This document shows positions 260 to 35,914 of a DNA stretch of 46,490 bases, piece after piece. Source of the stretch: Hyphomicrobiales bacterium (GTDB taxonomy: Bacteria > Desulfobacterota > Desulfobacteria > Desulfobacterales > SpSt-501); NCBI GenBank assembly GCA_050257775.1, contig JBLMXM010000027.1:1-46490 (forward strand). Reading direction: 5' to 3'. How positions within the stretch are numbered: the first letter of the stretch is position 1; each line of letters begins with the position of its first letter. A program made the position numbers and the translations under genes. The notes beneath the pieces were generated by a model. That model did not search any database. It saw only the letters and a list, made by a program, of their open reading frames with translations, and had not been told where the DNA came from.

Positions 260-428
260 AAGTTACAGATATCAACCAGCGTAAAGCTATATTCATAAAT
301 TTCCGCCAAGCCTGTGATATCATCCGACGTATCACAAGGTGGTGGCTCCTTGTGAATTATTCGACACGCTGAAAAATTGGCTTGATCTTCCCCTATTGGA
401 AAAGATATAATCTGCGCAATCCGAGGGG
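260..428 (+). repeat. Copy A of a dispersed non-coding element (other copies at 25715-26048 and 28508-28735)
   Basis: AAGTTAC sits exactly 61 nt before CATCCGACGTATCA in both copy A and copy C. About two thirds of the positions between them are identical. Weaker similarity continues to ...TAATCTGCGCAATCCGAGG. Confidence 0.6.
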
Positions 429-737
429 GTCACTCCAGACAGCTACACGCACCATATCAGGTTTTTGATAACGTGAGGTTGACGGATTATATCGCTGGAC
501 CTGGCGGCTCAGGGTGTTCCGGTTTGGATTTGACATAAACAGGCCAGCGGGGGTAATAATAGAATATACGGAATAAATCTGTAATGATTTTATATTGTTG
601 AACGCTTGTAATTTATCCGACAAAACACCGACCAGCCATTTCTGAGATAGTTTCAATCAACCTCAAGAGTCTATGGCCCCCCCAATCTTCCGAAGCCGCA
701 ATAAATCGGCAATTCCCGGAATCGATACTTTAAAATA

Positions 738-2711
738 TCACCTCAGTCCAGCAGTGCTATATGCGTTAAAAAGGCGCTCATCAAAGGGCCCTGCTTTATT
801 CGGTGACAACTTGTATTCGTTTTCTAATGAAAAATTCGGGTTCAGTCGCAGTACATTTTGCGCCGCCCACTGGGCTTCAGCATGCTTGCCTGACAGTTCG
901 TACGCTGCGGTGAGCCCTTTGTAGGCAAGATAGGCGAAACGGGATTGAGGGCTTCGATCGATAACCTCTTTGAATAACGATATCGACTTATCGTATTGGG
1001 TAGTTCCCACCAGAGCCCATGCAAGCTGGACGACATAGTTAACCGGTTTGAAGGGTGCAAGCTGGATAGCGGTTTCGCAGACATCGACGGATTCTTTAAA
1101 TTCCTCCCCCATGAACAACGCTAGGCATAGCATGTAGTGGCGACCGGAATCGTTCGGTGCTTGTTGAACGGATTTGCGCCCATATACGATGGCGGTTTCC
1201 ATATCCTTTTTTAACCGGGCGATGCGGCTCAACGTACCATAGGGCGGATAATCCGGGTCCACAGCCAGTGCTTTTTGAACCGCCTGTTCGGCCTTTTCCA
1301 TGGGTTGTTCGCGCTGCGTTGTCAGGCGCAGTTCAATTTCATCCAAATAGGTATTGGCCAACCATGTGTAAGCCCTTCCGAACTTGGGATCGATCTGAAT
1401 CGCCTCCTCGAACGACTGGCGAGCTCTTTGAACATCCTCCGACCTGCGGCCAAGATGATAGTATAGACCTCTCAGGTAGTGTTCATACGCTTTCAGGTTA
1501 TTCGGCCTTGAGTATTTCAACGCTCCCGTAGCATAGCCGGTTATCTGCACATTCAGAAACGCCATCACATCCATGGCTATTTTGTCCTGAAGGGCGAACA
1601 GATCGGAAAAACTGCGGTCATAACTTTCCGACCAGATATGATTCCCATCGCGGCCGTCAATCAATTGAACATTGATGCGCACCCGGTCTTGGTCGTGTTG
1701 CACGCTGCCCTCAATCAGGTATTTCACCCCAAGCTTCGCTGCAATTTCCTGGGCCTGCATCGCTTTGCCCTTGAACGCGAAACTGGAAGTGCGGGCGGCG
1801 ACATAAAGGTACGGTCCTTGCGATAGACTGGTTAAAAGCTGATCTGCAACACCTTCGCTGAGATACTCCTGTTGGGGGTCGCCGGTTAGATTTTCAAAAG
1901 GCAAAACTGCCAAAGACGGCTTATCGATGGGCGGGTAGACCGAAAGGCTCAGATCTACCCTTTCGGCAGGCATTTTTGTTTTGTATGAGAAAAATATCCA
2001 CCCGATAGCGATGATGACTACCGTAACCGCGGTGGCCACCATAGCCCCCAGGCGCTTGTGAGACCTTTGGCTACGGCTCCCGTCCGTTTGTGATAGTTCA
2101 GTGGGTGCAGCTTCGTTTGGTTCAATTTGAAGCTGATCATTTCCGGACATGTTCCTGAGACGGGTTACAAACTCTTCCCAGGCCGTATTGTCCCGAAGAT
2201 CTCCAAGCGTGACGGAAATGTCATTCAATCCGACGGAAGCCGAATCGAATGCAAACTTGAAGCGCCATTTGTTGTTTTCATCGTAGCCGAAAAGCCCTGC
2301 CCAAACATCACACTCTTCTTCCGAGCATTGGTACCTGTATTTCCCCCCTTTCTCATAGGGGGAAACAAGCTCCCGATCGAGGACTTTAAAGAGCGCTGCC
2401 GCCTCAAGGTCCGGAAGCCGGTTGCGCCATGCCATTCTAATTTTTGCCCACATGCCCTCGACATGCTCGGATGCCTTCTTACCTGAGAGAGATTTATCAA
2501 GCAGGGTCAGGATTCTCTGATGCCGGCGAATGTGAACAAACCCCGGATTCCCTTGTTTTTTCGCCTCTGTAATGATCAGGGCAATCAGCGAAAGGTAAAA
2601 ACGCCTGGAAGGCGTATCAAAATGAACTACGAGAGGTGTTATAGAGCCTTGGATTCGAAGCGTGATTTTGTATTCAGCCAAATTACATTGAATTGCTTCA
2701 ACCTTTTCCAT
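738..2711 (-). CDS. Single-pass membrane protein: unassigned ~220-aa cytoplasmic N-domain, one TM helix, periplasmic TolB-N-like module, then TPR repeats
   Basis: 657-aa ORF with a hydrophobic helix (GAMVATAVTVVIIAIGWIFFSY). The LAVLPFENLTGD...YLIEGSVQ...VRINVQLID motif is typical of TolB-N-like modules that precede TPR regions. The C-terminal half has TPR-like periodicity. The N-domain matches no family I recognise. Confidence 0.75.
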   Translation of the reverse strand: MEKVEAIQCNLAEYKITLRIQGSITPLVVHFDTPSRRFYLSLIALIITEAKKQGNPGFVHIRRHQRILTLLDKSLSGKKASEHVEGMWAKIRMAWRNRLPDLEAAALFKVLDRELVSPYEKGGKYRYQCSEEECDVWAGLFGYDENNKWRFKFAFDSASVGLNDISVTLGDLRDNTAWEEFVTRLRNMSGNDQLQIEPNEAAPTELSQTDGSRSQRSHKRLGAMVATAVTVVIIAIGWIFFSYKTKMPAERVDLSLSVYPPIDKPSLAVLPFENLTGDPQQEYLSEGVADQLLTSLSQGPYLYVAARTSSFAFKGKAMQAQEIAAKLGVKYLIEGSVQHDQDRVRINVQLIDGRDGNHIWSESYDRSFSDLFALQDKIAMDVMAFLNVQITGYATGALKYSRPNNLKAYEHYLRGLYYHLGRRSEDVQRARQSFEEAIQIDPKFGRAYTWLANTYLDEIELRLTTQREQPMEKAEQAVQKALAVDPDYPPYGTLSRIARLKKDMETAIVYGRKSVQQAPNDSGRHYMLCLALFMGEEFKESVDVCETAIQLAPFKPVNYVVQLAWALVGTTQYDKSISLFKEVIDRSPQSRFAYLAYKGLTAAYELSGKHAEAQWAAQNVLRLNPNFSLENEYKLSPNKAGPFDERLFNAYSTAGLR

Positions 2712-3533: not shown

Positions 3534-4679
3534 ATGAAAATCAGGTCGCTTTTCGTTGCAATAATTCTTGGCCTATCATTTCTGTCTGAATTGGGTTTGA
3601 CCACCTCAGTCATCGCCGGGAACACGACTATCTCAGCAGCTGGAGATAACTGTTTCGTTTTGAAATCAGATGGTACAATTTGGGCTTGGGGAGCAAACAA
3701 TAAAGGTCAGTTGGGCGATGGGACAACAGTCAACAAACCATCACCGGTTCAGGTTGGTAGTGACAAAGATTGGGTTTCAATTGCGGTGGGAACCTATTTG
3801 GGAGCTTATGTGCTTGCCATAAAGGCTGATGGCTCCTTGTGGGGATGGGGCATGAACGAGCATGGTCAATTAGGAGACGGCACAACCGCAAATAAATCTT
3901 CTCCCGTACGGATTGGAACGGCCAAAGATTGGGTACTTGTAGCGGCAGGAAATTCTCATACTCTTGCTTTAAAATCAGACGGAACAATGTGGGCCTGGGG
4001 ATTGAATAATATGGGCCAGTTGGGCGACGGGACAACGGCAAACAAGCAGTCACCAGTGCAGATTGGATCTGACAAAGATTGGGTTTCATTTGCCCTGGGA
4101 CGCAGTCATAGTGTCGCCTTAAAAAGAAATAATTCATTATGGGCATGGGGAGGAAACGCCAGTGGTCAGTTGGGGGATGGGACAAACGAAGCAAGAACAA
4201 CTCCCAAGCACATTGGAACGGAGAGCAACTGGGCTTCGATTACCGCAAACTATGACCAAACGCTTGCTACGAAAAAGGACGGAACCCTATGGGCCTGGGG
4301 ATACAACGGGAATGGACGGTTGGGGGATGGGACAATTGAAGGAAAAACGTCTCCGGTTCAAATAGGAAATGACAAAAACTGGGCTTTCGTAACCACCGGA
4401 TTCGTTCATACTCTTGCTTTAAAGTCTGACGGAACTCTTTGGGGGTGGGGAAGGAACCAAAGTGGTCAGCTGGGAGACGCAATAACCGCAGACAAGCATT
4501 CTCCCGTTCAGATTGGAAACGACAAAGATTGGGTCTCGGTTTCAAAAGGGTCAGCCCACACTATTGCATTGAAAAAGGATGGAACTCTTTGGGCCTGGGG
4601 AGCAAACAATAATGGTCAATTGGGTGACGGAACCACGGTAAATAAGACCACGCCGGTGAAGGTTAGCGGCAAATGGTAA
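3534..4679 (+). CDS. Secreted RCC1-repeat (7-blade beta-propeller) protein
   Basis: RBS AAGGAG and a signal-like N-terminus. Seven repeats with ~50-aa period carry W(A/G)WGxNxxGQLGDGT...SPV(Q/R)(I/V)G. The repeats are also visible at DNA level (GACAAAGATTGGGT recurring). Confidence 0.9.
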
Positions 4680-4739
4680 TTTGGTTCTGTCTCTGATTAT
4701 TGAAATGCCAACGCTTAACCGACCCACTATCTATCGCCG

Positions 4740-5038: not shown

Positions 5039-6328
5039 TCAAGAGCCTTTAAACCCCGGCCTCATTTTGCTGCTTGTTCGCCTCTCTGATCGTCTGCGCA
5101 TAAGGTTAGGGAGAAAGTACCAAACCAGGCATACGGCCTGAAGGGCCAGGAGAATGGCAAAGCTGGCGTGGTAGCCTTGGGAGGAGTAGTTTCCGGTGGG
5201 TGTTACAGGGAAAAGGGCGATGACGGCGCCGATGCCCCACTGGGCGGTGAAGGCGGCGACGAAGACCAGGACGTTGAGGCTGGTGCTGACCCGGCCGGCA
5301 AGCTGCGCGGGAAAGCTCATGGCGAGCGCCGGGTAAGAGATGACGCCGGCCGTTCCCATGAAACCGAAAAGGATCCATAGCTCCATGGCCCAGTTCACGG
5401 GCGCCACCATGAGCAGCGTCTGCACGACCATGAACAGGACCATCCCCCACACGGAGGTTGCCATCGGTGTGATGCCCGCCTGGTTGAGCCTTTCGGTGAC
5501 AAAACCGGCTATGATGTAGCTTGCCGTCATGGCCGCGGCGCTCCAGAATAGAACACCGGCGATGGCGGCACGGTCCATGCCAGCGATGTCCCGCAGCCAC
5601 GGACCGGACCACAAGCCGTATATGGACATGAACGCCACCTGGGATATGACGGCCAGCGGGGCCACCCGCCAGAACAGTCCGTTGGTGAACACCTGCCGCA
5701 CCCCTCTGAGCTGGTCGGCCAGCCGGATGACGGGTGCCTCCTGTCTTTTTTCAGGCACCCCCCAGAAGATGGCTGCGGCTACCAGCGCGCTCAAGACGGC
5801 CAGAAGCATGAAAACCCCTCGCCAGTCCGTGTAACCCAGCGCGTACTCCACCGGCAAGGTAGCCGAAAGCGCCCCGAAGCCCCCGGCAGCCAAGTGCAGC
5901 CCGTTGATCCGCGGCCATTGGTGGGCCGGGAACCAGAGGGTATAGGCCTTTATGGCAGCCATATAGCCGGAGGAAACCCCCAAGCCGATCAGCGCGCGTC
6001 CGATCGAAAGCCCCAGAAGGCTTGTGGCCCATCCGAAGGCCAAGGCACCTGTCGCGGCAAAAACCATCAGCCCCCCCTCGACGCGCCGCGGGCCGAACCG
6101 GTCCAGCAGGACGCCCAAGGGCAGCTGGAATGCGGCAAAGGAGATAAAGTAGACGGATGTGAGCAGGCCCAGGTCCGCCGGGCCGACCTGGAGATCCGCC
6201 GCCAAGTTGGGGGCGATGATGGCATTGACCACCCGGAACAGGTAGGACAAAAAATAGGCCAGTGCAAAGGGGATGAGCACCCGCAGCAGGGTCACAAGGG
6301 ATGATTGACCTGCCTGGGTCGCGTTCAT
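5039..6328 (-). CDS. MFS transporter
   Basis: 429 aa with about 12 hydrophobic segments. An MFS-like GVLLDRFGPRR loop follows TM2. Its start overlaps the upstream stop (TAATG). Confidence 0.85.
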   Translation of the reverse strand: MNATQAGQSSLVTLLRVLIPFALAYFLSYLFRVVNAIIAPNLAADLQVGPADLGLLTSVYFISFAAFQLPLGVLLDRFGPRRVEGGLMVFAATGALAFGWATSLLGLSIGRALIGLGVSSGYMAAIKAYTLWFPAHQWPRINGLHLAAGGFGALSATLPVEYALGYTDWRGVFMLLAVLSALVAAAIFWGVPEKRQEAPVIRLADQLRGVRQVFTNGLFWRVAPLAVISQVAFMSIYGLWSGPWLRDIAGMDRAAIAGVLFWSAAAMTASYIIAGFVTERLNQAGITPMATSVWGMVLFMVVQTLLMVAPVNWAMELWILFGFMGTAGVISYPALAMSFPAQLAGRVSTSLNVLVFVAAFTAQWGIGAVIALFPVTPTGNYSSQGYHASFAILLALQAVCLVWYFLPNLMRRRSERRTSSKMRPGFKGS

Positions 6329-28507: not shown

Positions 28508-28735
28508 AAGTTACCGATATAGACAGGGCAAGGCGCATAGTCACAGATTACCGTCATGCCGGTGATTTCATCCGACGTATCATCAAGCCACCCACTTTGT
28601 GTTATGCTGTACTGTCACCGGGTAATATTTCCATCCACTGATCGGGATTTCCATTCCCTACCTATCCTTCCACCACAATAGAGATCAATCCCATCCTAAT
28701 CCGCATCTGACCGGTATGAGCGTCTTAATCGAGGT
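28508..28735 (+). repeat. Copy C of the dispersed non-coding element
   Basis: See copies A and B. It is co-linear with A (same 61-nt spacing between AAGTTAC and CATCCGACG) and with B (hairpin region plus downstream blocks CCCTACCT, ATCCCATCCTAATCCGCATC, GTCTTAATCGAGG). Confidence 0.6.
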
Positions 28736-35732: not shown

Positions 35733-35914
35733 GGCACGCTGACAGCTTCTGAATGAAGTCTGTGATCGGAATAAACGCCGTACTCTTGGGAGAAAGCGTC
35801 GCCCAAGGGCCAAGTTCAAGGCGCGCGAGCCCCGCGGAACGAGGCGTATTTACCGTATGCCGCAGTGACGGCGAGGCGAAGCGCAACACCGAAATTGGTC
35901 CTTCGACGACGCCT

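Follow-up and report, generated by a model that had tools for sequence, protein, structure and literature searches.

A previously undescribed family of non-coding repeats with a conserved core in one genus of uncultured Desulfobacterales

The stretch of DNA analysed here (46,490 nucleotides, hereafter the window; contig C27 of a 454-contig, 4.5-Mb assembly) contains four copies, designated A to D, of a previously undescribed family of non-coding repeats that is confined to one uncultured, sulfate-reducer-like genus of Desulfobacterales. The likeness of A, B and C in a core of about 45 nt, TCATCCGAC-RW-ATCACC-N13-GGTGATAT, goes far beyond what chance would produce, and none of the known families tested takes the element as a member. 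We tentatively favour the view that it is a portable regulatory element of leaders or intercistronic spacers, acting in cis and coupled to transcription, which a putative factor would recognise through an invariant word. This reading, which could well prove wrong, is ranked ahead of a recombination junction, a decaying repeat and a trans-acting small RNA, in that order.

The preliminary description of this DNA had reported three diverged, co-linear copies, and A, B and C lie exactly where it placed them, on the plus strand in AT-rich non-coding DNA (Table 1). The three are real and their count was too low, since a fourth copy, D, had been overlooked; its core (613–656) lies 296 nt downstream of copy A, and it is homologous to a copy in genome G023 over −156 to +124. 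Formal pairwise alignment of the three original copies gave local scores well above those of shuffled sequences, namely 66 for A and C (16.6 ± 2.4 for shuffles, with 0 of 500 as high), 37 for B and C (17.1 ± 2.3) and 26 for A and B (15.9 ± 2.1). Between A and C, blastn aligned 87 nt at 77% identity (E = 6e-9), and an ungapped 46-nt repeat (289–334 and 28537–28582) reached 83%. The distance from AAGTTAC (260–266 and 28508–28514) to CATCCGACGTATCA (321 and 28569) is, as had been proposed, 61 nt start-to-start in both. Copy B has only the core and the hairpin in common with A and C. The annotated lengths of 169–334 bp were thus overstated, because the homologous part amounts to only about 90 nt in A and C and about 45 nt in B.

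Table 1. Positions in the window of the four copies, their parts and a repeat inserted next to copy B.
Feature	Position	Strand	Remarks
Copy A	260–357	+	nhmmer match 316–337, E = 5e-4 genome-wide; also blastn and local alignment
Copy A, upstream module (A-type)	260–319	+	left arm TGTGATA at 313–319
Copy A, core 17-mer TCATCCGACGTATCACA	320–336	+	
Copy A, hairpin arms	332–339; 348–355	+	TCACAAGG; CCTTGTGA
Copy D	451–745	+	nhmmer match 612–656, E = 6.5e-6 genome-wide
Copy D, upstream extension	451–528	+	
Copy D, promoter-type module, 83 nt	529–612	+	profile match 530–612, E = 2.6e-15
Copy D, boxes TTGACA and TAATAAT/TAGAAT	530–535; 554–566	+	followed by AATAAATCTGTAATGATTTTATATTGTTG
Copy D, core TTATCCGACAAAACACC	613–629	+	3' arm CTGAGATAG at 642–650
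Copy D, long 3' extension	to ~745	+	
Copy B	25704–25782	+	nhmmer match 25743–25787, E = 7e-7
Copy B, upstream module (B-type) GAATTCTATTGCCTATCACATTGCGGG	~25704–25744	+	
Copy B, core variant GCATCCTACGTATCACC	25745–25761	+	hairpin 3' arm TTGTGATAT at 25774–25782
Palindromic MITE, 145 nt, unrelated to the element	25858–26002	.	>100 genomic copies, 85–97% identity
Copy C	28508–28606	+	nhmmer match 28564–28610, E = 1.4e-8
Copy C, upstream module (A-type)	28508–28567	+	left arm GGTGAT at 28561–28566
Copy C, core TCATCCGACGTATCATC	28568–28584	+	hairpin 3' arm TTTGTGTTAT at 28597–28606
Copy C, 3' tail as first annotated	28607–28735	+	weakly similar to the tail of copy B

Of the sequence said to be shared by B and C, the hairpin region holds up and the "downstream blocks" are borderline: the two tails score 23 against 15.3 ± 2.3 (z ~3.3), a value that 6 of 500 shuffles equal. 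Apart from this weak likeness to copy B, the tail of copy C was not found in other members of the family. Neither the spacer between livF and B nor the tails of B and C resembled the long 3' extension of other copies significantly, except for a weak similarity to copy D. The extra length of copy B is accounted for by the MITE that starts about 75 nt downstream of it, whose 23-nt terminal inverted repeats (25854–25876 and 25986–26008) are 96% complementary. A contig present in two public metagenomes (X19/X20) joins 25857 to 26003 and represents the MITE-empty site.

The three copies first described are the visible tip of a family with about 100 collected members. A core profile search of the genome to which the window belongs found 11 clear and about three marginal copies, and roughly 100 distinct ones were gathered from loci in about 20 MAGs of the same genus. 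The earlier interpretation is supported in so far as the element is genuine, non-coding and dispersed and is not a decayed gene end. The 17-mer TCATCCGACRTATCAYC, with at most one mismatch, is present in 22 of 41 related genomes at up to 16 matches per genome, nearly all matches being in this genus; the reversed control gave 0 matches. With a stricter core pattern, exact matches were obtained in 33 stretches across one genome per species (185,579 species). Thirty of these belong to MAGs of uncultured Desulfobacterales type, obtained from soil, sediment and groundwater and variously labelled (one each Syntrophaceae and Nitrospirae), and the other three are chance matches. The core had no match in plasmid, phage and viral-contig collections, and a literature search for the core strings returned no paper containing them. 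Rfam covariance models, applied to the window at the gathering threshold and to 20 copy loci at E ≤ 1 to 5, assigned no family; three sub-threshold matches were due to chance, and the sole real match was an unrelated c-di-AMP riboswitch. This riboswitch (RF00379, 93 bits; C313:8363–8498 of the window's genome, equivalent to L009:314–449) is located about 110 nt downstream of a family member and has a near-consensus promoter, TTGACA-N17-TACTGT.

The consensus derived from these copies reads (T)CATCCGAC-[G/A][T/A]-ATCAC(C)-N13–15-(G)GTGAT(AT). All of 100 copies have the same bases at the ATCC.GAC positions (100%), and the intervening G is 99% conserved, part of this invariance being ascertainment, since the copies were collected by searching for the core and degenerate cores do exist. 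The flanks, unlike the core, are only 50–70% identical between copies or are unrelated and modular. The suggestion that spacing and structure are conserved rather than sequence is therefore not supported; it is sequence that is conserved. The absence of 3-nt periodicity, on the other hand, is borne out, as the conserved part is a block of invariant bases and the short ORFs that run across it are not conserved as ORFs. One copy (L076, ~6050–6090, on contig C32 of G009) carries a 13-nt tandem duplication within the core, ATCCGACTTATCA being present twice.

Around the core, interchangeable modules are found, and the ends of pairwise homology fall at its edges: 307 of 645 left ends lie at 0–10 nt of the core start, and 489 right ends lie at +20–30 or +40–50. 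The promoter-type module, carried by about 40 copies, has the form CAGTTTGGnTTTGACA-N18-TAAGAAT-AGGATAT-ACGGAATAAATCTGCAATGATTTTGGATTGTTGGAT and is sigma-70-like, with an almost invariant TTTGACA and TAnnAT-type boxes, the putative −10 box being poorly spaced from TTGACA (18–19 nt, or 25 nt). The A-type module, ATATTCACAGAT...CCGGTGATTT, is present in A, C and about 15 others; its GGTGAT is able to pair with the ATCACC arm, which gives a second TCAC/GTGA inverted repeat of the same polarity. The B-type module, TTTGATTTCTATTGCCTATTGCAACGTTGG, occurs in copy B (as "CTATTGCCTAT"), in a copy on contig C170 and in others. On the 3' side, the extensions comprise a version of about 200 nt (copy D), one that we call class ii, and one running into adenylate cyclase-TPR genes. 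Class ii precedes six non-homologous genes in six genomes, which means that the conserved DNA is not part of any one gene's upstream region. Neither terminal inverted repeats nor target-site duplications were found at module edges. A gene hidden on the minus strand was also considered, given an SD+ATG at the left edge of some promoter modules, and was rejected because the ORFs there encode only 4–69 aa. In the window's genome, four paralogous adenylate-cyclase-like genes (on C282, C42, C219 and C15), which start MAQELKRKLSAILSAD..., have a conserved leader of about 180 nt with the core at its beginning; an identical repeat at the ends of contigs C42 and C219 is probably an IS that breaks the assembly.

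Next to the invariant word, a short hairpin is likely, and sequence is the main thing conserved, as judged from weak covariation and nearly invariant stem pairs. RNAalifold, run on 11 and on 39 copies and on both strands, returned an empty structure with no consensus fold, and among single-sequence folds only that of copy A was unusually stable (z = −5.1), B, C and three other copies giving unremarkable values. When the hairpin pairs were instead named by hand and counted on 90 copies, 71% of the cells were paired as compared with 28–45% in slid registers, and 61 cells had changed on both sides, against 44.9 ± 5.3 in shuffles, none of 500 of which reached 61. The covariation score was 0.135 versus 0.117, a value attained by 9 of 500 shuffles. 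Covarying extensions of the stem are seen as ACAAGG/CCTTGT, ACCGA/TCGGT and TCTCA/TGAGA. There is hardly any variation in the five central pairs, and 65 of the 90 copies have a C.U mismatch at one pair. The covariance check that had been put forward for the element thus yields at most a weak signal. In promoter-type copies, a further upstream stem, GTTG(GAT)/(ATC)CGAC, may possibly form, of which the core side never varies.

All copies are intergenic, and at 44% GC they are AT-rich relative to the genome (60%) and lie in accessory segments, consistent with the placement at AT-rich segments that had been noted for the window. Between co-directional genes the element stands in the sense orientation in 42 of 45 cases (93%, p = 9e-10), and it is found in 19 divergent, promoter-containing spacers versus 9 convergent ones. 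The statement that the copies sit just downstream of a plus-strand gene, which is true of A (after the ABM gene), B (after livF) and C (after the MFS gene), therefore gives half the picture. For 69 of 83 copies, the closest gene downstream points the same way as the element, with a median of 183 nt from hairpin to start codon; for the closest gene upstream this holds in 62 of 84, with a median of 171 nt to its stop codon. As the upstream stop is as near as the downstream start, a 3' role is also conceivable. In 14 of the 83 copies a convergent gene is faced; copy D is among them and consequently has no downstream gene to regulate. For copies A, B and C, the distance to the next start codon in the same orientation is 300–510 nt, and the lipoprotein gene that follows copy C has promoter-like sites of its own. 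Where copies cluster, they do so in direct orientation, 0.3–9 kb apart, and their neighbours include genes for nSTAND NTPase, TIR, CAP12-TIR, AAA_22 ATPase, adenylate cyclase-TPR and sulfatase proteins and toxin-antitoxin pairs.

As had been observed earlier, B and C flank the merB-like/MFS module as direct repeats, and a parallel layout exists in another genome of the genus (G007). There, on the reverse strand of locus L070 (6150–6330), a second Liv-type ABC operon ending in livF is succeeded by a B-type module whose core is degenerate (TCATTCGAAAAATTAC), then an MFS gene and then an intact element, an arrangement that mirrors the livF-B-...-MFS-C order of the window. The livF-pxpC interval, which holds B and C in the window, measures only 260–750 nt in three relatives and contains other DNA, without cores, in two more; from the synteny of these relatives the edges of the insertion are not definable.

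Evidence from RNA gives moderate support to transcription of the element. No sequencing run contained this strain itself at a depth high enough to be useful. Contigs of an rRNA-depleted sediment metatranscriptome match conserved parts of related copies, with a summed depth of 44–98 at the core of A and at the module of D, and of 100–300 along a G023 copy (module, core and extension). A single contig of 199 nt, 96% identical, connects the extension with the beginning of the gene downstream. The support is no more than moderate because the contigs are strandless and may contain DNA.

In the mechanism that we put first, sense transcription would make the element part of the 5' leader, or of the spacer between cistrons, of genes of accessory and defence type. 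Beside the hairpin, the word (T)CATCCGAC, invariant and single-stranded in appearance, would serve as the docking site of one trans-acting protein or small RNA, a putative trans-factor that would co-regulate the genes concerned. The active form of the element would be RNA rather than DNA. Copies with a promoter module, should the module fire, would bring their own transcription start, and A, B and C, which have none, would be read through from the ABM gene, livF and the MFS gene, respectively. Among known systems, such a role recalls the ops/JUMPstart element in the leaders of horizontally acquired operons controlled by RfaH. There too, a short word, invariant and bound to one orientation, is located in transcribed leaders of accessory genes that are AT-rich, at about ten per genome, and the element fits this description. 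The sequence of the element, however, differs from the ops consensus and is unrelated to GGCGGTAGnnTG, and the distribution of the specialised NusG paralogue does not follow that of the element: a second NusG-family gene occurs in genomes that carry no element, and G023, where copies are most numerous, lacks it. This makes an ops/RfaH-type mechanism that relies on a dedicated paralogue unlikely. Among the partner profiles tested (NusG paralogue, integron integrase, Y1 transposase), no trans-factor for the element was identified.

The next explanation, which we consider rather unlikely, is that the core is a recombination or mobility junction for a site-specific recombinase or an HUH-type ssDNA enzyme, with integron-like cassettes. 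Under this explanation, upstream units, each made up of a gene and a promoter module, would be joined at the core to downstream units that consist of the core and an accessory gene, and B and C would bound a merB/MFS cassette. It draws on the pile-up of homology ends at the core edges, on the direct-orientation clusters, on cargo typical of cassettes and defence (nSTAND, TIR, CAP12-TIR and toxin-antitoxin genes), on the livF-pxpC interval being empty in three relatives, and on the resemblance of a hairpin with an adjacent invariant word to HUH substrates, A-type copies having two similar hairpins around the word. Individual edges point the same way. One end of a 2.3-kb duplication in G023 (98% identity) lies at GTTGGAT, 10 nt ahead of a core, with unrelated DNA beyond; two paralogous copies in the window's genome share +2 to +399 and nothing upstream of the core; and two orthologous loci share −398 to +43 and then diverge. 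These cases fit the core as an exchange point, yet they are also to be expected if the core is simply the sole block of sufficient length and similarity for occasional homologous exchange, and selection on a cis-element combined with such exchange would give the same breakpoints. Moreover, the left edge of the G023 duplication is away from any core, and no B-C joint was seen in public DNA runs, in which the organism is represented at only ~2x depth. The recombination-related boundary once suggested for these copies survives in that homology does break at the core; no recombinase could be tied to the element.

With respect to integrons, the likeness to attC/cassette arrays, including CALINs, consists in direct repeats with an imperfect hairpin around accessory, defence and toxin-antitoxin genes and in between-locus homology that breaks at the site. 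In attC, R'' (RYYYAAC) and R' (GTTRRRY) boxes bracket an imperfect palindrome of 57–141 nt, the structure of which is conserved while its sequence is free. In the element, in contrast, GTTGGAT stands about 10 nt 5' of ATCCGAC, so that the order of the boxes is wrong, the hairpin has no GTTRRRY after it, it is the sequence rather than the structure that is mainly conserved, the copies are spread over many contigs, and many have a promoter-like module. Integron integrase (TIGR02249 above cut-off) was detected in 3 of 27 genomes, namely the window's genome, G023 and G013, the last of which is without the element, and no core was found within 10–20 kb of intI, nor any look-alike repeats next to it. 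The integron model was accordingly rejected: intI is rare and unlinked to cores, and attC boxes are absent. In the window's genome the integrase gene (C341:5064–5798, TIGR02249 368 bits) contains a single in-frame TAG and is truncated where the contig ends, which would place any attI or cassettes belonging to it outside the contig; in G023, intI is complete (C4:475450–476394).

A similar comparison applies to the ends of IS200/IS605-family elements and of their derivatives without cargo (PATEs), which share with the element a subterminal hairpin with an adjacent conserved single-strand word and a sharp edge of homology about 10 nt away from the hairpin; the two like-oriented hairpins around the word in A-type copies are reminiscent of an IS200/IS605 RE-LE junction. 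The element differs in having no conserved edge tetranucleotide (the bases before TCATCC vary, among them ACT, AGA, GAT, GGT and GTA) and no associated tnpA or tnpB, and the second hairpin is limited to A-type copies. Matches to the Y1 transposase (PF01797) are present in 27 of 27 genomes, element-free ones included, in numbers only loosely related to those of the element, which led us to reject an IS200/IS605 or RAYT model; a single adjacency in G003 looks coincidental. IS91 with a tyrosine recombinase was rejected as a partner as well, as it adjoins one copy in two genomes only. In the first of these (L090, on contig C32 of G009), the IS91-family transposase and tyrosine-recombinase genes (67–2180) are transcribed away from the element copy, which starts ~70–150 nt from the recombinase start, and the arrangement recurs in one other MAG (L061). 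That the word and hairpin are the site of an unrecognised recombination or ssDNA system which shuffles promoter modules and cassettes without an integron integrase is a long shot.

It is also unlikely that the family is a decaying mosaic repeat of the BIME or MITE type, which would have spread in the ancestor of the genus and would have no present function for its neighbours, the core persisting as the end or binding site of a vanished mobilising enzyme, or by gene conversion. A range of one genus with 0 to ~16 copies per genome, the low GC content, the mosaic structure with tandem or degenerate units and the failure to detect a partner gene are all compatible with decay. Neutral decay would, however, erode the core too, and eight core positions are 100% conserved across species next to flanks that are 50–70% identical or unrelated. 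The 42 of 45 sense orientations are hard to explain unless a function or an insertion bias is linked to transcription, and terminal inverted repeats and target duplications are missing. The REP/BIME sequences of enterobacteria, which go with RAYT transposases, are like the element lineage-specific, strictly intergenic and often located between co-transcribed genes, and they too combine a small imperfect palindrome in a mosaic with other short conserved motifs. REPs, however, number hundreds of copies in both orientations, often as inverted pairs, as compared with at most ~20 per genome and 93% sense for the element, in which an asymmetric invariant 9-mer and not a palindrome is conserved and with which Y1/RAYT genes are not co-distributed. 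The promoter-bearing Correia/NEMIS MITEs resemble it as small non-coding, co-transcribed repeats near gene starts with possible promoter boxes, and differ from it in that the element has no terminal inverted repeats, no target-site duplications and no uniform length; its conservation is in one 45-nt block, and homology edges fall at the core and not at common outer ends.

A family of independently transcribed, trans-acting sRNAs of about 150–260 nt, each of which would span promoter module, core and long 3' extension, is improbable: the promoter module with a conserved 200-nt non-coding extension lacking an ORF, the RNA contigs over module, core and extension, and the position of copy D and two G023 copies, which face convergent genes and so cannot be leaders, speak for it, but no variant is followed by an intrinsic terminator, most copies (A, B and C included) have no promoter module, one RNA contig runs on into the downstream gene, and there is neither a conserved fold nor an Rfam match.

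Should the cis-regulatory reading be correct and the word be a docking site, it would define a regulon of horizontally acquired and defence-type genes in abundant, uncultured Desulfobacterales of sediment and soil, one that would take in STAND NTPases, TIR effectors, cyclase-TPR proteins and the selenocysteine MerB/MFS module, and a 17-nt bait would offer a means of isolating the regulator. As a recombination site, the core would represent a new way of assembling accessory-gene cassettes. Either way, the element is a useful marker of variable regions for the annotation of these MAGs.

Two further repeats were observed in the window. Seven tandem 150-nt units, 61–79% identical, occupy positions 3659–4700 within a 381-aa ORF (3534–4679), the protein of which consists of 50-residue repeats. 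Adjacent inverted-repeat pairs of 32 nt and 43 nt, both 81% complementary, are located 25.5 kb apart at 10214–10298 and 35809–35909, and may be two diverged, oppositely oriented copies of one gene end or regulatory region.
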